DNA of 58,955 bases from an uncultured Thiotrichaceae bacterium. Lineage in GTDB: Bacteria; Pseudomonadota; Gammaproteobacteria; SZUA-229. How positions within the stretch are numbered: the first letter of the stretch is position 1; every line of letters starts with the position of its first letter. The DNA is taken from assembly GCA_964651445.1 (NCBI GenBank), contig CAZYYW010000003.1:1-58955 (forward strand), written 5' to 3'. Made by a program: the position numbers and the translations under genes. Below, in pieces: positions 1,010 through 46,348 of the stretch. The notes under the pieces were generated by a model that saw nothing but the letters and a program-made list of their open reading frames with translations, searched no databases and was not told the DNA's origin.

Positions 1010-3226
1010 ATGAAAGATCAACTGACACAAAAAAGGTATAACCAACGCGCATTTAAAGATCGAATTGCACGTTATTGTGTGTCAGCGGGCGGTGTCAGCG
1101 TGATTATGGCGATTCTGCTGATATTCTTTTATTTGCTTTATGTTGTTGTTCCAATGTTCAGTTCGGCCGATATAAAACTGAATACTTCTTATAGCGCACC
1201 AGGCGAAGGAAGAACCTTAGCGCTGGGAGTGGAAGAACAAGGCACGATGGCGGTTCGGCTGACAGATCAGGGTCAAATCGTTTTCTTTAGAACAGAATCA
1301 GGCGAAGTGGTCTCGCAAAAAAACCTTGAGCTGCCCGCTAAAATCAGCAGCGTATCACAAAACTTTGACCGTATTGCACTCGGCCTTGAAAATGGCACGG
1401 CACTGGTTCTGCGCTATAAATTCGAACTCAGTTACCCCAACGATATTCGTACCCTGACACCGGTTATTGAATACCCTTTAGGTGCTGAGCCCGTCATAAT
1501 GGATGATTCCGGCGCTGCTTTAACGCACATCGCTCTGCAAGATTATGGCGATGAAGTTGGCTTGGCAGCCGTCACTGACACTAACTATCTAGTATTCGCT
1601 CACTATTTACGTGAAGAATCGTTTCTTACTGACGAAGTCATTACTGAACTAAATTCGCGCTCAAGAAGAGCGATTGAAGACGCCAACATCGTCGGTATTG
1701 CACTGACACCCAGACTCCACCGCGTGTTTATTGCTACCCAGGGTGACAGCATACAGGGTGGCAGCATAATAAAGCACAAACTTAATAACGATGGTTTTGA
1801 TGGTGCGCCACGTACCTACTTATTTGATCAGGGAATCACCTATATAAAGTTACTGTTAGGCGGCTCCTCGCTAATGATTGCACTGGACAATGGTGAAATC
1901 CAGCAATGGATGTCGGTGCGCAAGGAAGGCGGAAGAGAGCTTACATTTATTCGTAATTTCGATAACGAGCAATATTCTATATCGACTATAGCCACTGAAC
2001 AGCGGCGCAAAAGTTTTGCTGTTGCTGACAGCCAAGGCGATGTCACGATATTTTACTCAACATCGCAAAGAACGCTGGCAAATATTAATACCGCGAATAC
2101 CGCAATAGACAAAATGGCATGGTCAGCACGCGCCAAACATTTGTTAGTTTCTGATCAAAATAATCAGTTACATTTATATGACGTAGACAACGAATACCCG
2201 GAAGTATCCTGGGCAGTACTGTGGGAAAAAGTCTGGTACGAAGGTTATGACGAGCCTGATTACATCTGGCAATCTTCTGCTTCCACCGATGATTTCGAAC
2301 CCAAATTCAGCTTGGTTCCTTTATCTTTTGGTACCATTAAAGCCGCCTTCTACGCCATGCTGTTTGCGATTCCCATCGCTATTTTAGGTGCCATGTTCAC
2401 CGCGCATTTTATGGCACCGAAAATGCGGCAAACGGTAAAGCCTGCCATTGAAATCATGGAAGCACTGCCGACCGTTATTTTAGGCTTCCTCGCTGGCATC
2501 TGGTTAGCACCGTTGATTGAAAGCCACCTCGCTGGGGTCTTCACTATATTAATTGTACTGCCTATTAGCTTCATACTGAGCGCAGCCCTTTGGACGATAC
2601 TACCCAATAGATCCATTTTTGAAGGCTGGGAAGCGGCATTATTAGTCCCGGTTGTCATCTTTGCAATCTGGTTTTCCATGGAACTCAGTGTGCCCATTGA
2701 AAACCTGTTTTTTGGTGGCGATTTACGCAATTACATGAGCACTGAATGGGGCTGGGATTACGATCAACGTAATGCGCTAGTGGTTGGTATTATTATGGGC
2801 TTCGCTGTCATTCCAACCATATTTTCCATTGCAGAAGATGCCTTGTTTGGTGTGCCGCAGCATCTGGTTCGTGGCTCGCTCGCACTGGGTGCAACCCGCT
2901 GGCAAACCATGAGCAGCGTGGTTTTACCCGCTGCCAGCCCCGGTATATTTTCGGCCGTCATGATGGGCTTTGGCCGCGCCGTGGGTGAAACCATGATCGT
3001 CTTAATGGCAACAGGTAATACACCACTAATCGACATGAGTATCTTCCAGGGCATGCGCACACTGGCAGCTAATCTTGCCGTAGAAGTACCCGAAGCCGCC
3101 GTCGATAGCACTCACTATCGAGTTTTATTCCTGGCTGCATTTATCCTGTTCATGTTCACTTTCTTCTTTAATACTATTGCTGAAATTATTCGGCACCGGT
3201 TACGCAAAAGGTATAGCGGCTTATGA
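1010..3226 (+). CDS. pstC: Phosphate ABC transporter permease PstC, long form with periplasmic beta-propeller-like domain
   Basis: C-terminal EAA-loop region (EDALFGVPQHLVRGSLALGATRWQT) and GRAVGETMIVLMATGN; first gene of the pst cluster. Confidence 0.93.
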   Translation: MKDQLTQKRYNQRAFKDRIARYCVSAGGVSVIMAILLIFFYLLYVVVPMFSSADIKLNTSYSAPGEGRTLALGVEEQGTMAVRLTDQGQIVFFRTESGEVVSQKNLELPAKISSVSQNFDRIALGLENGTALVLRYKFELSYPNDIRTLTPVIEYPLGAEPVIMDDSGAALTHIALQDYGDEVGLAAVTDTNYLVFAHYLREESFLTDEVITELNSRSRRAIEDANIVGIALTPRLHRVFIATQGDSIQGGSIIKHKLNNDGFDGAPRTYLFDQGITYIKLLLGGSSLMIALDNGEIQQWMSVRKEGGRELTFIRNFDNEQYSISTIATEQRRKSFAVADSQGDVTIFYSTSQRTLANINTANTAIDKMAWSARAKHLLVSDQNNQLHLYDVDNEYPEVSWAVLWEKVWYEGYDEPDYIWQSSASTDDFEPKFSLVPLSFGTIKAAFYAMLFAIPIAILGAMFTAHFMAPKMRQTVKPAIEIMEALPTVILGFLAGIWLAPLIESHLAGVFTILIVLPISFILSAALWTILPNRSIFEGWEAALLVPVVIFAIWFSMELSVPIENLFFGGDLRNYMSTEWGWDYDQRNALVVGIIMGFAVIPTIFSIAEDALFGVPQHLVRGSLALGATRWQTMSSVVLPAASPGIFSAVMMGFGRAVGETMIVLMATGNTPLIDMSIFQGMRTLAANLAVEVPEAAVDSTHYRVLFLAAFILFMFTFFFNTIAEIIRHRLRKRYSGL

Positions 3227-40700: not shown

Positions 40701-41321
40701 TCACTTCTTAAAACCGGTAGCCAAGGCATACATCTCTCGACTTCGCGCCCTCGAAGCCTTCGGCTTTCGCATGACGACCTTTGAAAAACTGGCTTTGAGT
40801 TCTTTGCTGTAAGCATCAAAACCCTCGCCCTGAAATAACTTTACCAGCAAAGCGCCGCCCGGTTTTAACACCTGCCGCGCCAAATCCAGTGCTAGATCAC
40901 ACAAATAATAGGCGCGCGGCATATCAACCGAGTCCATGCCACTTATATTGGGGGCCATATCGGAAATAACAAGGTCTGCCTGTTTTGTTTCCATTACTGA
41001 CATAAGTGATTCAAAAACCGTGTCTTCACGAAAATCACCTTGTATGATGGTGACACCGTCTATTGGTTCCATTGGCAAAATATCCAGCGCCACAATGCGG
41101 CCTTTGTTCCCCAGTTTTTTGACACAGTATTCTGACCATCCACCGGGTGCAGCACCCAGATCAATGATGATCATTCCGGGTTTTAGCAGGCGATCTTTTT
41201 TATCGATCTCGATAAGTTTGTAAATCGCGCGCGAACGATAACCATCCTGCTGTGAGCGACGCACATATTCATCATCGAAATGTTCTTTTAACCAGGACTT
41301 ACTGCTTTTGCTTTTTGCCAT
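40701..41321 (-). CDS. rlmE: 23S rRNA Um2552 methyltransferase RlmE (FtsJ)
   Basis: [10 protein letters not shown] and [10 protein letters not shown] motifs. True start ATG 41321 ([10 protein letters not shown]). Confidence 0.97.
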
Positions 41322-41336
41322 GTTTTTTATTTTTTT

Positions 41337-41416
41337 CCGCAAATGGTCGCTCTTACACATCCATGTGTCCGCGACATTAGTGCTGTCCTTGCACGTCAAC
41401 GCGAATAAACGCAAAT
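41337..41416 (+). repeat. 10-nt periodic arm (CGCAAATGGA/CGCGAATAAA/CGCAAAT) interrupted by a 52-nt GGA-hairpin element (41347-41398)
   Basis: Removing 41347-41398 restores CCGCAAATGGACGCGAATAAACGCAAAT. The insert is homologous to 41968-42017. Confidence 0.75.
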
Positions 41417-41492
41417 AAAAAACGAATTAATTTTTTATTTTATTGGTACAGATATCACCGACATGGCGCAAAAAAGTGTTTATTGCCCTTAG

Positions 41493-41520
41493 CTGCCTAC
41501 TGCAAACTGCCTATTACCGA
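41493..41520 (+). repeat. Heptamer array directly after the yhbY stop codon
   Basis: CTGCCTA CTGCAAA CTGCCTA TTACCGA. Confidence 0.55.
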
Positions 41521-41820
41521 CTATTTCCTCGGTAATTCTATGATAGCTTGGTCGGGATTAACACGATAAACCGACAAGGTTTTGCCTATCGACTGCACTT
41601 CTTGTGACTGACTTTGCTCGCAGATATCAGCAATCATCTGTTTTCGCTGTTCGCGGTCATCGACAGACAGTTTTATTTTCACCAATTCGTGGTGCAGCAG
41701 TGCAATTTCAAGCTCCGCTAACACTTCTTCCGTTAGGCCTTTTTGCCCCAACATGATAACGGCTTTTAAGCTGTGACACTTTGCGCGTAAAAATTTAATT
41801 TGTTTTTTTGACAGGGACAT
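41521..41820 (-). CDS. yhbY: RNA-binding ribosome assembly protein YhbY (CRM domain)
   Basis: LRAKCHSLKAVIMLGQKGLT and HELVKIK motifs. Start ATG 41820. Confidence 0.95.
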   Translation of the reverse strand: MSLSKKQIKFLRAKCHSLKAVIMLGQKGLTEEVLAELEIALLHHELVKIKLSVDDREQRKQMIADICEQSQSQEVQSIGKTLSVYRVNPDQAIIELPRK

Positions 41821-41840
41821 AAGAAAACTCCAAAATATAT

Positions 41841-42030
41841 TTTGCCGCGAAGGACGCAAAAAGCGCAAAAGAAAACAAAGTTATCATTTCAAAAACACTC
41901 ACCTGGGTAACGGCCGCAGCAAATAAAAATTTTAATAATGATCCGTTTATATTTGCGTTTTTTGCACTGACGTGCATGGATGCACTAATGTCGCGGGCGC
42001 ATGGAGCGCAGGAGCGACCTTCGCGGCAAA
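41841..42030. mobile_element. Gene-less cassette bounded by 30-bp periodic inverted repeats; the right arm carries a 50-nt insertion
   Basis: Left arm TTTGCCGCGAAGGACGCAAAAAGCGCAAAA (41841-41870). The right arm (41951-41967 plus 42018-42030) aligns ungapped at 26/30 once 41968-42017 is removed. Confidence 0.7.
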
Positions 42031-42039
42031 AAAATGCTT

Positions 42040-42516
42040 TTAAATATATTTAATATCAACAATTTCCAGCGAGCGCAGCCCACCGGGTGTCTTCACTTCT
42101 GCAACGTCGCCTTCTTCTTTACCAATCAAGGCGCGGGCAATCGGCGAACCGACTGAGATCATGTCGTTTTTAATATCGGCTTCATCTTCACCAACGATTT
42201 GATAGGTCATTTCATCACCGGTTTCCTCATCGGCGACATCGACCGTGGCACCAAAAACCACTTTGCCGTTGGCATTCACCGTGGTGACATCAATGATGGT
42301 GGCATTGCCCAGCTTGCCTTCTATATCTTTAATGCGACCTTCAATAAAACCCTGCTGTTCACGCGCCGCATGGTATTCAGCATTTTCTTTCAGGTCACCG
42401 TGCTCACGCGCGGTAGCAATGTCTTCGATCACTTTTGGGCGATCAGTTGACTTCAGCTGATAAAGTTCATCCTGTAATTTTTTTGCACCGCCTACGGTGA
42501 TTGGTACTTTATTCAC
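42040..42516 (-). CDS. greA: Transcription elongation factor GreA
   Basis: [18 protein letters not shown] motif. Confidence 0.98.
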
Positions 42517-45500
42517 GCTATTGTCTCTTGTGTCTGTTTAATTGTTTTGTGCAAATCTTGTAACTTTGTAATTGAATTCATTTGCAAATAATCCAGCGCT
42601 CGAACGGTGGCATTGGCACCCGCGATGGTGGTAGTGTAACTCACCTTGTGCTGTAGTGCAGAGGAGCGAATGGTGTAGGAGTCACTAATGGCTTTCTTGC
42701 CTTCTGTGGTATTTATGATTAGCGCAATATCACCATTTTTTATCATATCCACGATATGCGGCCGACCTTCATACACTTTATTGGCTACTTTGCATTCAAT
42801 GCCAGCGGCGCTTAAAACACCGGCAGTACCGCTAGTGGCTACCAACTTAAAACCTTTAGCAACCAATTCTTTACCTAGAAAAACCGCCTGCTCGCGGTCA
42901 CGTTCACGTACACTGATAAAAACTCGACCTTTAGTTGGCAACTCTACACCCGCACCAATCTGTGCTTTCGCAAAGGCCATGCCAAAGCTCTCCCCAATCC
43001 CCATGACTTCTCCAGTGGACTTCATTTCCGGCCCTAATAGTGGATCGACGCCGGGGAATTTCACAAAGGGGAATACCGATTCTTTTACCGCATAGGTTTT
43101 AGGCACAACTTCTGCGCCTACGCCTTGCTGCTTTAAAGAAATACCTGCCATACAACGCGCGGCAATTTTTGCCAGTGGTACACCCGTGGCTTTGGAAACA
43201 AACGGCACGGTACGTGATGCACGTGGATTTACTTCCAGTAGATAGATATTGAAATTCGGTTTATCCTTCTCTTGCTGCTCACTTTGTGGCTGTTCGCTAA
43301 ATTGTATCGCAAACTGAATATTCATTAAACCAACAACGCCTAATTTCAAGGCTAACTGACGGGTTTGCACGCGCAATTGATCTTGCACTTCAGCGGATAA
43401 TGAATACGGCGGTAAGGAACAAGCAGAATCACCGGAGTGTACACCGGCTTGTTCTATGTGTTCCATAATGCTGCCGATCAAAACTTGTTCACCATCGCAA
43501 ATGGCATCGACATCAACTTCTACTGCATCGTCAAGAAAACGGTCGAGCAATACGGGCGCATCGTTGGACACGCTAACCGCATTTTTCATGTAATACTTCA
43601 AGTCGGTTTCGTTGTACACGATTTCCATAGCGCGACCACCCAAAACGTAAGAAGGTCTGACCACCAGAGGAAAACCAATTTCAGCAGCCCCTTTTACGGC
43701 TTCTTCTGTGGAACGTGCCAGGCGATTTGGTGGTTGCTTCAATCCCAACTCGTTAACTATTTGCTGAAAGCGTTCACGGTCTTCCGCCAGATCAATACAA
43801 TCGGGCGTGGTGCCAATAACCGGTACGCCAGCGGCTTCGAGATCACGCGCCAGCTTTAACGGCGTTTGCCCACCATACTGAACGATAACCCCTTTGGGTT
43901 TTTCGATGTCCATTACTTCCAGCACATCTTCTAGCGTCAGTGGCTCAAAATAAAGACGGTCGGAGGTATCATAGTCCGTTGATACGGTTTCCGGATTGCA
44001 GTTAATCATGATGGTTTCATAACCGTCATCGCGCATGGCAAAGGCAGCATGTACACAACAGTAATCAAACTCGATACCTTGGCCAATGCGGTTGGGACCG
44101 CCACCTAAGACAACAATTTTTTCTCGGTCAGTGGGCTGCGCTTCGCACTCTTCTTCATAAGTAGAATACAGGTAAGCCGTAGCCGTAGAAAATTCTGCGG
44201 CACAGGTATCGACACGTTTGTACACCGGTCGAATACCCAGTGATTGGCGATATTCACGCATGGCTTTTTCGTCAACTTTTAGCAAGCCAGCAAGGCGGCT
44301 GTCTGAAAAGCCTTTGCGTTTCAGAGCAAATAAATCTTCTTTGGACAGGTTGTTTAGTGCCTCGCCTTGCGCTGCCCTTTTGTCTAGCGCCAACTCTTCT
44401 TTGATGAGGTCTTCTATTTGCACTAAAAACCAGGGGTCGATTTTTGTCAGGTTGAACAGCTTTTCATTCGAGTAACCGCGGCGGTAGGCATCACCGAGGT
44501 ACAACAAACGATCAGCACCGGGAAGACTTAATTCCTGATTCAAGAATGACTCAATTTCATCTTCTGCCATGTCTGGGTCGAGCGCCGGGCTAAGGCCATC
44601 AATATCGATCTCAAGGCCACGCAAGGCTTTTTGCAGCGACTCCTGAAAGGTACGACCAATTGCCATCACTTCGCCGACGGATTTCATCTGCGTGGTCAGG
44701 CGGTTTTCAGCTTGCGGAAATTTCTCGAAGGTGAAACGCGGAATTTTTGTTACCACGTAATCTATCGCTGGCTCAAACGATGCCGGTGTTGCGCCACCGG
44801 TAATTTCGTTCTGCAATTCATCCAATGTGTAACCAATCGCCAGCTTGGCGGCAATTTTGGCAATGGGAAAACCAGTAGCTTTGGATGCCAACGCCGAGGA
44901 GCGAGATACCCGTGGATTCATCTCGATGATGGTCATTCGACCATCCGCTGGATTCACCGAAAACTGCACGTTGGAGCCACCGGTTTCGACGCCAATTTTA
45001 CGCAATACGGCAATCGACGCATCACGCATCTGCTGGTATTCTTTATCGGTTAGGGTTTGCGCGGGCGCGACGGTAATCGAATCGCCAGTATGAATCCCCA
45101 TTGGGTCGAGGTTTTCAATTGAACAGATAATGATGCAGTTGTCGTTCTTGTCACGCACCACTTCCATCTCGTATTCTTTCCAACCGAGAATGGACTCTTC
45201 AACCAGCAACTCATTAACCGGCGACAAGTCCAGACCACGGTGGCAAATTTCTTCAAATTCTTCCTTGTTATAGGCAATGCCACCGCCACTGCCGCCCATG
45301 GTGAAGGAAGGCCGAACGATGGTGGGGTAGCCGACCTGCGCTTGCACCTGAAAGGCTTCTTCCATGCTGTGCGCAATAGCGGCACGCGGCATGTCGAGAC
45401 CAATTTCTTCCATCGCTATCTTAAATTTTTCACGGTCTTCCGCCATGTCGATAGCATCTTTACTGGCACCGATCATCTCGACGCCAAATTTTTCCAGAAT

Positions 45501-45818
45501 GCCTTCGCGATCTAAATCCAGCGCACAATTTAACGCGGTCTGTCCGCCCATAGTGGGCAGCAATACATCGGGCTTTTCTTTTTCGATAATGGCGGCAACA
45601 GACTGCCAGGTGATGGGTTCAATATACGTCGCGTCAGCGGTTTCCGGATCGGTCATTATGGTTGCCGGATTGGAGTTCACCAAAATGACACGAATGCCCT
45701 CTTCTCTCAACGCCTTACACGCCTGCGCGCCAGAGTAGTCAAACTCACAGGCTTGGCCAATAACAATCGGCCCGGCACCGATGATTAATACGCTGTTTAT
45801 GTCTTGTCTTTTAGGCAT
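42513..45818 (-). CDS. carB: Carbamoyl-phosphate synthase large subunit
   Basis: [30 protein letters not shown], duplicated ATP-grasp domains and MGS domain. Confidence 0.99.
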
Positions 45819-45851: not shown

Positions 45852-46348
45852 TTAGTCCGCGAATAACGCAAAAGACGCGAAAAAAGCAAATTAAATATTA
45901 TGTTTATCATCGTAATTCCAGACTATTCTTCGAATACCTAGCCTTGCCACTCCAAAATTTAATAAAAGTCCTACAGTCAATCCTAATGCTTTCAGGTAAT
46001 TCATTACTTGCGCATCATGCTCCTTATTGAAGGCCGACAATGCTTTTAGCTCAATGAGCAACCTATCATCCACAACAATATCAGCGATATAGTGACCAAC
46101 CTCTATGCCTTTATAACTGATAACAAACTGCGGCTGCCGCTGTATAGGAATACCTGCTTGCGTTAGCTCCATACACAATGCGTTCTCATACACTTTTTCC
46201 AAAAAACCGGCACCTAAGCCATGACTAACATTCTGCGCGCATTTCAATACACGTTCACTTAGCCCGCCACCACAAACCATAAAACCTCCCTGTTTTCAAA
46301 AATAAATGTTTCGCTTTTTTCGCGTCTTTAGCGTTATTCGCGGACTAA
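45852..46348. mobile_element. Cassette of the GxxExxY gene bounded by 36-bp inverted repeats, inserted between carA and carB
   Basis: TTAGTCCGCGAATAACGCAAAAGACGCGAAAAAAGC (45852-45887) and its reverse complement at 46313-46348 match at 35/36, with internal 9-nt periodicity. Confidence 0.8.
45891..46280 (-). CDS. GxxExxY protein (PD-(D/E)XK nuclease superfamily)
   Basis: GFLEKVY signature, IADIVVDDRLLIELKA (D...ExK), AQVMNYLKA and GLLLNFG; SD GGAGG. Confidence 0.92.
   Translation of the reverse strand: MVCGGGLSERVLKCAQNVSHGLGAGFLEKVYENALCMELTQAGIPIQRQPQFVISYKGIEVGHYIADIVVDDRLLIELKALSAFNKEHDAQVMNYLKALGLTVGLLLNFGVARLGIRRIVWNYDDKHNI

Follow-up and report, generated by a model that had tools for sequence, protein, structure and literature searches.

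A widespread, fold-conserved mini-element of environmental Gammaproteobacteria that behaves like mobile DNA

Introduction

Small palindromic repeats can lie in-frame within bacterial genes, housekeeping genes included, and keep the reading frame, as do the Rickettsia palindromic elements and the open reading frame (ORF)-inserting MITEs (miniature transposable elements with inverted repeats) of Coxiella. Repetitive extragenic palindromic (REP) sequences are usually species-specific. Here we describe a mini-element that occurs twice (copies A and B) in 58,955 nt of DNA from an uncultured Thiotrichaceae bacterium (contig CAZYYW010000003.1 of assembly GCA_964651445.1), the whole of which is called the window below. 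It belongs to a widespread non-coding family of environmental Gammaproteobacteria, about 51 nt long and conserved as a fold: a 5-bp outer stem, an inner hairpin, a 4-nt linker and a second hairpin.

The closest known motif is TwoAYGGAY (RF01731; Weinberg et al. 2010, PMC2864571), which comes from human gut, Clostridia and gammaproteobacteria and has two hairpins with AYGGAY loops. Its closing stem P1 is “often very large” (PMC2864571), with up to 24 bp, and a 2014 paper proposed that TwoAYGGAY is bound by CsrA. The consensus reported for RsmA/RsmN by SELEX (the systematic evolution of ligands through exponential enrichment) is CANGGAYG in a hexaloop, and ANGGA in apical loops is the motif found in vivo by crosslinking and immunoprecipitation (CLIP).

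Two copies of the element in the window

Copies A and B (Table 1) lie in mutually opposite orientation. On the strand with TCC loops, copy A reads GTCGC TCCT GCGC-TCCAT-GCGC CC GCGAC ATTA GTGC-ATCCAT-GCAC GTCA and copy B reads GTCGC TCTT ACAC-ATCCAT-GTGT CC GCGAC ATTA GTGC-TGTCCTT-GCAC GTCA. Copy B is laid out as an outer stem (GTCGC/GCGAC) around an inner stem, ACAC(A)/(T)GTGT with the loop TCC, followed by the linker ATTA, the second hairpin GTGC-TGTCCTT-GCAC and the tail GTCA. The inner stem of copy A is GCGC/GCGC and its second hairpin is GTGC-ATCCAT-GCAC. By a hand count from the sequence, the copies are about 83% identical; they differ at seven substituted positions and by two loop indels of one base each. 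In the inner stem, two compensated changes from G-C to A-T pairs (GCGC/GCGC in copy A, ACAC/GTGT in copy B) account for four of the seven. The G preceding the start given in a preliminary description of this DNA pairs with the C of GCGAC and is therefore part of the element.

A search of the window (58,955 bases, filters off) with a covariance model trained on copies from other genomes returned two matches with 72.0 and 69.4 bits, and the next best match had 11.5 bits (E 0.22), which excludes chance for A and B and leaves exactly two copies in the window. The 14-nt core CGCGACATTAGTGC likewise has its only exact occurrences in the window in these two copies. Both strands of both copies fold to the same three helices, the outer stem around the inner hairpin and then the second hairpin, with z-scores from -2.2 to -3.5. 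A simple terminator was rejected as well, as no terminator-like site was found in the A/B region, nor was a promoter-like one on the minus strand.

On the other strand the loops are AUGGAU and AUGGA in copy A and AAGGAC and AUGGAU in copy B, and B holds CACAUGGAUGUG. Copy B is located in the yhbY-rlmE spacer, where its GGA strand is the sense strand of rlmE, 25-77 nt upstream of the ATG at 41321. Copy A is located between the greA stop and the yhbY start; its GGA strand is antisense to greA-yhbY and the sense RNA has UCC loops. Both copies are positioned after the first ~10-nt unit of a repeat arm, at CCGCGAAG^ (A) and CCGCAAATG^ (B). The preliminary description had proposed two homologous copies in opposite orientations, a covarying stem (GCGC..GCGC against ACAC..GTGT), AUGGA or AAGGA loops on one strand, a GGA strand that lies on the rlmE mRNA leader in B and antisense to greA-yhbY in A, and insertion after the first arm unit. 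All of this holds: the ends are correct to within one base, the two changed pairs are fully compensated, and the loop sequences, the gene coordinates and the junctions agree.

The same model gave one more weak match in the window, at 1630-1674 on the minus strand (10.6 bits, E 0.39) within a 738-aa ORF (1010-3226). It retains TCGCTCTT, CGCGAATTTAGT and CGTCA. It could be a decayed relic inside the ORF, and we took it as chance.

A widespread family conserved as a fold

A pattern scan (CGCGACATTAGTGC-N4-9-GCACGT) of one genome per species found at least 117 stretches with the core of the element in many gammaproteobacterial orders. Among the matches listed are Thiotrichaceae, Acidiferrobacterales, Thiohalomonadales, Lysobacterales, Cellvibrionales and Oceanospirillales, together with Natronospirillum, Marinomonas, Catenovulum and Psychrobium and a few bins labelled otherwise. 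Named carriers include Gilvimarinus polysaccharolyticus YN3, Microbulbifer okhotskensis OS29, Natronospirillum operosum G-116 and Psychrobium sp. nBUS_13. The flanks hold the full unit of ~51 nt, with inner stems as varied as GCGC/GCGC, GTGC/GCAC, ACGC/GCGT, TGAT/ATCA, GGCA/TGCC, GACA/TGTC and GCCA/TGGC. Using a covariance model trained on 23 copies from other genomes, we searched 100 sources (0.73 Mb) and obtained 129 copies at E<=1e-4.

Covariation across these 129 copies extends to all three helices. Of the cells, 94.2% pair, and 14 of the 15 pairs have changed on both sides; none of 500 shuffles reached the observed covariation values, and the signal collapses when the partners are slid. 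Fitting the alignment to the model favours the structure, but the variety of the stems is plain in the raw sequences. In copies outside the constraint of the seed pattern, compensated changes are found in the outer stem (GCCGC/GCGGC, GTAGC/GCTAC, GTCAC/GTGAC, GTTGC/GCAAC) and in the second hairpin (GTAC/GTAC, GAGC/GCTC, GTCC/GGAC, GGAC/GTCC). The preliminary description had argued from two copies that structure rather than sequence is conserved, and the larger alignment bears this out very strongly.

The loops are conserved in sequence. GGA is kept at 89-96% per position, and the consensus loop is AUGGAU in both hairpins. Most copies begin with GTCGCTC and the unit almost always ends with GTCA. 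Read on the GGA strand, the unit is UGAC[GUGC-AUGGAU-GCAC]UAAU[GUCGC-GG-[GCGC-AUGGAU-GCGC]-AGGA-GCGAC].

Variants of two kinds were observed. Long variants of ~100 nt (L065 6714-6814, L070 7730-7830 and L105, left of 7417) have an extra ~50 nt in the loop of the inner hairpin, in which the 5' end of the element itself recurs inverted (GCAGGAGC). In others (L020 1100-1176, L037 2985-3060, L007 142-197) a row of three or four TCC-loop hairpins stands upstream of the common CGCGACATTAGTGC...GTCA module. The layout of these multi-hairpin variants suggests a wider superfamily.

Comparison with TwoAYGGAY

The mini-element is like TwoAYGGAY in its two terminal loops of the AYGGAY type. On the GGA strand both have a simple hairpin, a linker (CUAA or UAAU) and then another hairpin enclosed by a short outer stem that has internal loops. 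Psychromonas ingrahamii has several copies of TwoAYGGAY, which read GCAAG[UGGAAAC-AUGGAU-GUUUCCA]CUAA[GUUCGG-CUCU-[GCAC-AUGGAU-GUGC]-UGU-CCGGAC]UGGUGC in the 2010 Stockholm file. In a joint MAFFT alignment the two families are in register at both hairpins and at the CUAA linker, and RNAalifold recovers only the two hairpins from it. Further likenesses are the multi-copy occurrence in a gammaproteobacterium, a location that is not cis-regulatory and an undefined function, with CsrA binding proposed for TwoAYGGAY.

In its stems and outer helix, the mini-element departs from TwoAYGGAY in both sequence and length. A closing P1 stem is absent from the 51-nt unit, which is placed within a single arm of an inverted repeat rather than between two; and in-frame copies within ORFs are known for the mini-element, whereas the portion of the TwoAYGGAY text available to us does not describe them. 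The RF01731 model gave no match at the gathering score, and none at E<=10 in 851 nt, at E<=1 in 24 kb of copy-bearing loci or at E<=10 in the 86 nt around the best copy. As order, nesting, loops and the UAA-containing linker agree, we regard the mini-element as a variant built like TwoAYGGAY that fails the RF01731 model and is without a closing stem. With this, an orphan motif of 16 years would gain a plausible identity as a mobile repeat.

Membership in any Rfam family was rejected, as no match overlapped a copy at permissive thresholds. The sole faint likeness is at 835-909 of locus L115, where on the GGA strand the second hairpin and linker (CGUGCAUGGAUGCACUA) are identical over 17 nt to the 3' hairpin consensus of the Enterococcus small RNA model RF02637 (9.3 bits, E about 1). 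The core sequence is not printed in any paper that we found, and the literature on MITEs in Beggiatoaceae and on CsrA together with repeats gave no description of the element. For a preprint of September 2026 (10.64898/2026.09.22.753630), term counts give “TwoAYGGAY” 52 times and “repetitive” 52 times, both words also being registered as occurring in the abstract, “transposase” once, and “CsrA”, “IS200”, “HUH”, “RNA-binding” and “DNA-binding” zero times. As far as such counts reflect its content, the preprint seems to handle TwoAYGGAY as repetitive and may overlap in part with the present findings.

Gain, loss and multiplication of copies

A metagenome scan with YhbY yielded 54 related loci (48-91% identity), and the element is found in four of these 54 (L152, L154, L156, L168). 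Five orthologous rlmE leaders have the same arm (...TTCGCGT-TCATTTGCGGA...ATG), and compared with them copy B is cleanly inserted as 52 additional nt; the alignment of empty and filled sites has an ambiguity of at most 1 nt. At the same orthologous rlmE-leader site, L154 carries a copy of a different subtype with an internal deletion between its two hairpins. Copies are also nested within the hairpin loops of other copies (L030 3284-3385, L011 1266-1316), and head-to-tail tandems that abut directly are present in L011, L054, L094 and L114. Several loci of one genome can have near-identical copies with one private stem variant in common, for example TGATA/TATCA in bin B10T3L8. These comparisons show that gain and loss involve the element as one exact unit and that it multiplies within genomes as lineage-specific subfamilies with compensated stems. 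They support the preliminary description in its view of a discrete element, conserved in structure, that can be present or absent at a site. Judged by the comparison of sites, its behaviour is that of mobile DNA.

Many matches of the pattern scan lie within a few bases of contig ends, which is expected because repeats break assemblies; broken assemblies are one practical consequence of the element. Copies that adjoin the end of greA were observed in L154 (673-723) and L156 (595-645), where the TGA at the end of the element is the greA stop codon. The element can hence supply stop codons.

Plasmids and phages were considered as vehicles and rejected on the counts. One match was found among 72,556 plasmid records, in Lonsdalea populi plasmid NZ_CP072857.1 (L173 1502-1553), where the copy is in-frame in an annotated DNA primase gene and has a covarying second hairpin (GGAC/GTCC). 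Phages gave no match, five IMG/VR contigs matched, and the element is absent from the 5,426 E. coli genomes searched.

Location, orientation and resemblance to CsrA/RsmA sites

According to crude gene calls on the loci of the 129-copy sample, 32 intergenic copies lie in co-directional, 26 in convergent and 6 in divergent spacers, and at the co-directional sites the sense strand is the GGA strand in 16 cases and the TCC strand in 16. Many copies, by eye, adjoin or sit within other hairpins. The flanks outside arms are nearly information-free, with G at -1 in 58% and at most 0.4 bit per position in the left flank. The element has no terminal inverted repeats (TIRs), its ends being GTCGCTC... and ...GCACGTCA, and no target-site duplication (TSD) is evident between empty and filled sites. 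With the strands split 16 to 16, far more convergent than divergent spacers and numerous copies within ORFs, the pattern is that of a selfish repeat which is tolerated and not that of a leader element.

The loops nevertheless have the sequence of CsrA/RsmA sites, i.e. GGA in the loop of a short hairpin and CANGGAYG. The consensus hairpins of the GGA strand are G-CAUGGAUG-C. At least one exact CANGGAYG is present on the GGA strand in 101 of the 122 distinct copies (83%), 29 copies have two, and one has it on the other strand; at least two A(N)GGA are found on the GGA strand in 108 of the 122. The likeness to the CsrA/RsmA consensus that the preliminary description had noticed in A and B is, at the level of sequence, a property of the family.

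It could be argued that the element functions as RNA. A GGA-sense copy would be a double CsrA/RsmA site with two CANGGAYG hexaloops ~22 nt apart, copies in leaders would tune translation, copies in many transcripts would titrate CsrA like CsrB/RsmZ, and the loops would be kept for this function. We consider it unlikely. In its favour are the strand bias of the motif (found on the GGA strand in 101 of 122 copies and on the opposite strand in 1) and its identity with both the SELEX consensus and the CLIP motif, and TwoAYGGAY was independently proposed to bind CsrA. Moreover, the rlmE ATG has copy B 25-77 nt upstream of it, with a third GGA (GCGGAA) nearer the start, and in a single case, L077, a copy (767-818) is found ~600 nt downstream of csrA (1-162; 87% identical to E. 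coli CsrA). However, transcripts show no excess of the GGA strand (16 vs 16), copies are rare in the divergent, promoter-side regions (6) and common in convergent ones (26) and in ORFs in both orientations, and most close relatives lack the copy in the rlmE leader. Copy A has the “wrong” orientation, neither hairpin of B overlaps a ribosome-binding position, and csrA was not seen in the window, of which the 59 kb say little on the whole genome. As in CsrB/RsmZ, the loop and its closing pairs equal the high-affinity CANGGAYG, and there are two sites at a spacing that a CsrA dimer could bridge. Unlike CsrB/RsmZ, the copies are dispersed, occur in either orientation and in ORFs, and belong to no dedicated small RNA gene.

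The orientation and location statistics together with the patchy presence among relatives indicate that the element is not maintained for regulation, and we found no sign that it is. A family kept for leader regulation does not agree with these numbers. In our preferred reading, which is a mobile element, any effect on rlmE or yhbY would be a by-product and not what maintains the family. The orientation of B gives the rlmE leader two hairpins with CsrA/RsmA-consensus loops, which could be co-opted for regulation, and transcripts with a GGA-sense copy would gain sequences identical to the best CsrA/RsmA ligands.

Copies within genes

Among the 129 copies, 29 lie within an open frame that continues for at least 60 codons to either side; 16 of the 29 are GGA-sense and 13 TCC-sense. 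The 51-nt unit corresponds to 17 codons, and four of the six frames of the consensus are open by our own reading. When ten insert-bearing host proteins were searched against Pfam, the domain match ran through the insert in nine, and at least 11 in-ORF sites are in Pfam-verified genes (Table 1). A fourth HsdM-like insertion site, in L060, comes from sequence reading alone. In alignments to solved structures, the gap opposite the insert measures 18 residues for GcvT (aligned to E. coli GcvT, 3a8i) and 16 residues for UvrA (aligned to the UvrA of entry 2r6f). In these Pfam spans and structure-alignment gaps the reading frame is kept and the host protein is otherwise intact, so that 17 residues are added to housekeeping and restriction-modification (R-M) proteins.

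The in-frame addition of a short peptide that does not destroy the frame is shared with the Rickettsia palindromic elements and the Coxiella MITEs. The mini-element differs from both in its hosts, which are free-living environmental Gammaproteobacteria, in its much shorter length (17 codons), in its two-hairpin GGA-loop fold and in having no sequence similarity to them.

Type I R-M operons are strongly over-represented at copies, with HsdM in 10 and HsdS in 7 of 117 loci. The loci associated with R-M genes are L002/L083, L018/L067, L028/L105/L117, L060, L110, L004, L038 and L115, and the copy is in-frame at four HsdM sites and one HsdR site. The excess may come from horizontal transfer of R-M islands plus sampling by an exact core, or from something more specific.

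Six bins have the element in what remains of an IS91-type Y2_Tnp gene, where it interrupts the codons for the H-x-H motif (NHFH). At L016 it is found at the joint of an internal deletion of the relic gene. We read the element in these relics as another insertion and not as a link to the mobilising enzyme.

The arms and their filling

Judged from their sequence, the arms that host copies A and B belong to a separate, MITE-like element as its inverted ends, each made up of two or three units of ~10 nt (CGCRAANNNN). The two ends enclose 30-170 nt; the arm types are GTCCGCGAAGAACGCAAAAGACGCGAAAAA, TCCGCAAATGAACGCGAATAAACGCAAATAA and GTCCACAGATGAACGCAGATGAACACAGATAA. The empty arm at 41844 and the arm with copy A are the paired ends of one such element (inverted-repeat pair I6, 94% complementary; I8, 81%). 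Across the relatives L119-L172 the MITE-like element is present or absent at differing spots around yhbY, its outer end often stands upstream of yhbY or rlmE, ~20 nt from the start codon, and a solo arm of the B type also stands directly upstream of rlmE in many relatives. The classical MITE features, TIRs and a TSD, are present in the arms and absent in the mini-element.

A three-unit regular expression, applied to a sample not seeded by the element, found 55 empty and 2 filled arms, or ~4% filled. In filled arms the element always has one orientation at the unit junction RAWG^AACGC, usually after the first unit and sometimes after the second. About four fifths of the sampled copies are outside arms, some of them inside genes. 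The preliminary description had seen the element as a site-targeted parasite of the arms. The part that stands is the recurrence at RAWG^AACGC; the part that does not is a general targeting of arms, in view of the four fifths of copies elsewhere and the weak target specificity outside arms.

The presence of A and B at this junction could come from repeated insertion there or from joint spread with the arm. In the strongest form of the latter, the mini-element would no longer move by itself in this lineage; a few old insertions would have made composite arms, the MITE-like element would have spread these, and A and B would be two composite-arm lineages. We regard this as a possible, though not the likelier, history. 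Nearly every sampled copy in arm-bearing genomes is in an arm, and only ~4% of arms are filled in the unbiased sample. The CCGCGAAG-type arm has the same subtype (GCGC-TCCAT-GCGC) in at least six genomes, copy A included, and CAAATG and CAGATG arms mostly have the B-like ACGC/ACAC subtype. In L006 both arms of one MITE-like element are filled, and this, with the subtype partly tracking the arm type, suggests that arm and element have spread together. Repeated insertion, in contrast, is suggested by the A-like subtype in CAGATG/CAAATG arms (L071, L152, L168) and by the different subtypes of the window and L154 at the same orthologous rlmE-leader site. Insertions after the second unit (L029, L073, L079, L084) and the clear independence of the element from arms in other genomes also speak against joint spread as the whole account.

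Mobilisation

Our overall reading, which we believe to be probable, is that of a widespread mobile mini-element, conserved in its fold and mobilised in trans, with regulatory effects as a by-product. The element would move as DNA, through a trans-supplied enzyme that recognises its two similar hairpins when the DNA is single-stranded; the most plausible candidate is an enzyme of the HUH type or one with a comparable specificity for structure. It inserts into other repeats, in or beside hairpins, between genes (mostly at 3' ends) and in-frame within genes. Recognition of a single-stranded fold by a trans-acting enzyme is suggested by the lack of TIRs and TSDs, the two similar hairpins, the conserved loops with free stem sequence and the insertion at hairpins. 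Structure and loops, rather than stem sequence, would be conserved because such an enzyme would read hairpins in single-stranded DNA. If so, a compact structure-defined mobile element across many orders has been overlooked by current RNA-family and repeat annotation, and an enzyme that moves a 51-nt unit without TIRs and TSDs would be of mechanistic interest.

The mini-element is comparable to the palindrome-associated transposable elements (PATEs) derived from IS200/IS605. Both have no TIRs or TSDs, insert in or beside hairpins prone to be single-stranded, and contain two similar hairpins, subterminal and directly oriented, as if a left and a right end had been joined. Unlike PATEs, the mini-element has no conserved 4-5 nt target at its left end and is far below the minimal size known for IS608-type ends, and neither a TnpA nearby nor a parent element was found.

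All loci (~0.9 Mb of flanks) and the window were searched by tblastn with IS200 TnpA and E. coli RAYT (REP-associated tyrosine transposase), the query sequences not being database-derived. A single Y1_Tnp gene was found, in L003, 3.9 kb from a copy and with its own unrelated 21-nt inverted repeat; in the window tblastn found none. When all ORFs of the loci were clustered, type I R-M genes were the only recurrent neighbours and no transposase was among them.

The preliminary description had offered possible mobilisation by HUH/RAYT enzymes, and a RAYT or IS200 link finds no backing: no RAYT or IS200 gene was found beside any copy, the lone Y1 transposase has unrelated repeats, and there is no GTAG head. 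As a complete explanation, the element would be of the REP type, mobilised by a RAYT (a domesticated Y1 HUH transposase), its copies being REPs and its clusters resembling bacterial interspersed mosaic elements (BIMEs). We think this very improbable. The element is, like REPs and BIMEs, small, GC-rich, hairpin-forming and multi-copy, has no TIRs or TSDs, is biased to gene 3' ends and terminator-like hairpins, and is sometimes clustered, with several copies in one intergenic region in L005, L011 and L035. In contrast to REPs, it has no GTAG or GTGG head, with GTCGCTC as the 5' end of most copies, and its unit is made of two unlike hairpins, not one palindrome or an inverted REP doublet. Many copies are within ORFs and hence not extragenic, the core is common to several orders, and no RAYT flanked by copies was found.

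Several points weigh against the reading of a mobile element moved in trans. No mobilising gene was identified in the sampled loci and the window, the sole Y1 transposase near a copy being unrelated, and about 1 Mb of flanks yielded no split parent element with one hairpin at each gene end. IS200/IS605-type transposition would lead one to expect a conserved target of 4-5 nt at the left end, which the flanks outside arms lack. The core is near-identical across orders with GGA in both loops, which a host function could explain instead; the sample was seeded by an exact 20-nt core, so it is biased to young or horizontally moved copies and carries little information on core conservation. The asymmetry of G-U vs A-C wobbles, 24 vs 16 with the loop-closing positions set aside, leaves the strand undecided. 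Mobility is deduced from site comparisons, and, as the element subtype partly tracks the arm subtype, A and B themselves need not be independent insertions into arms.

A bolder view would unite the element and TwoAYGGAY in one superfamily of hairpin mini-transposons that lack inverted ends and target duplication, are moved by a structure-specific enzyme, install ready-made double high-affinity CsrA/RsmA sites wherever their orientation is right, which together would rewire or buffer the CsrA regulon, and possibly add a 17-residue peptide to essential proteins. We offer it as speculation and would not expect it to hold in full.

In L022, a group II intron domain V/VI match (2586-2659; 49.6 bits) was observed ~240 nt from two copies.

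Genomic context

Table 1 Copies of the mini-element, arms and genes of the window, and genes of other genomes that host a copy
Feature	Position	Strand	Remarks
Copy A of the mini-element	41968-42018	minus (TCC-loop strand)	51 nt; covariance-model search (72.0 bits) and fold
Copy B of the mini-element	41346-41398	plus (TCC-loop strand)	53 nt; covariance-model search (69.4 bits) and fold
rlmE (FtsJ-type methyltransferase)	40701-41321	minus	Pfam FtsJ on identical contig L001; start codon conserved in relatives; leader has copy B
Arm hosting copy B	41337-41421	plus	First unit CCGCAAATG (41337-41345), then AACGCGAATAAACGCAAATAAAAAAC from 41399; solo arm directly upstream of rlmE
yhbY (CRS1_YhbY domain protein)	41521-41820	minus	Flanked on both sides by copies A/B
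Empty arm GCCGCGAAGGACGCAAAAAGCGCAAAAGAAAAC	41844-41876	plus	Left inverted end of ~190-bp MITE-like element; copy A in right end
Arm hosting copy A	41945-42027	minus	First unit GCCGCGAAG (42019-42027), inner part GTGCAAAAAACGCAAATATAAAC (41945-41967)
greA	42040-42516	minus	
carB-sized ORF	42513-45818	minus	Name from gene order alone
Further empty arm GTCCGCGAATAACGCAAAAGACGCGAAAAAAGC	45855-45895	plus	Just beyond carB; same arm family
GcvT host			GCV_T spans insert
UvrA host			UvrA_inter and UvrA_DNA-bind span insert
HemW-like host			Two inserts in one gene; Radical_SAM, HemN_C
CobQ host			GATase_3 spans insert
HsdM host			Three insertion sites verified; N6_Mtase
HsdR host			ResIII spans insert
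Rhs host			RHS_repeat spans insert
Y2_Tnp relic loci	L016 6251-6634; L081; L104 4275-4326; L037; L044; L078		

Short direct repeats (GGCAGT/TTGCAGT) follow the yhbY stop at 41480-41520 of the window on the minus strand. Direct repeats just downstream of yhbY were also observed in L119, L121, L125, L126, L137, L139 and L150, some of them of the ACTTACAACTT type. The repeats 3' of yhbY are reminiscent of the intergenic heptamer repeats that have been reported from marine Beggiatoaceae (PMC4679880).

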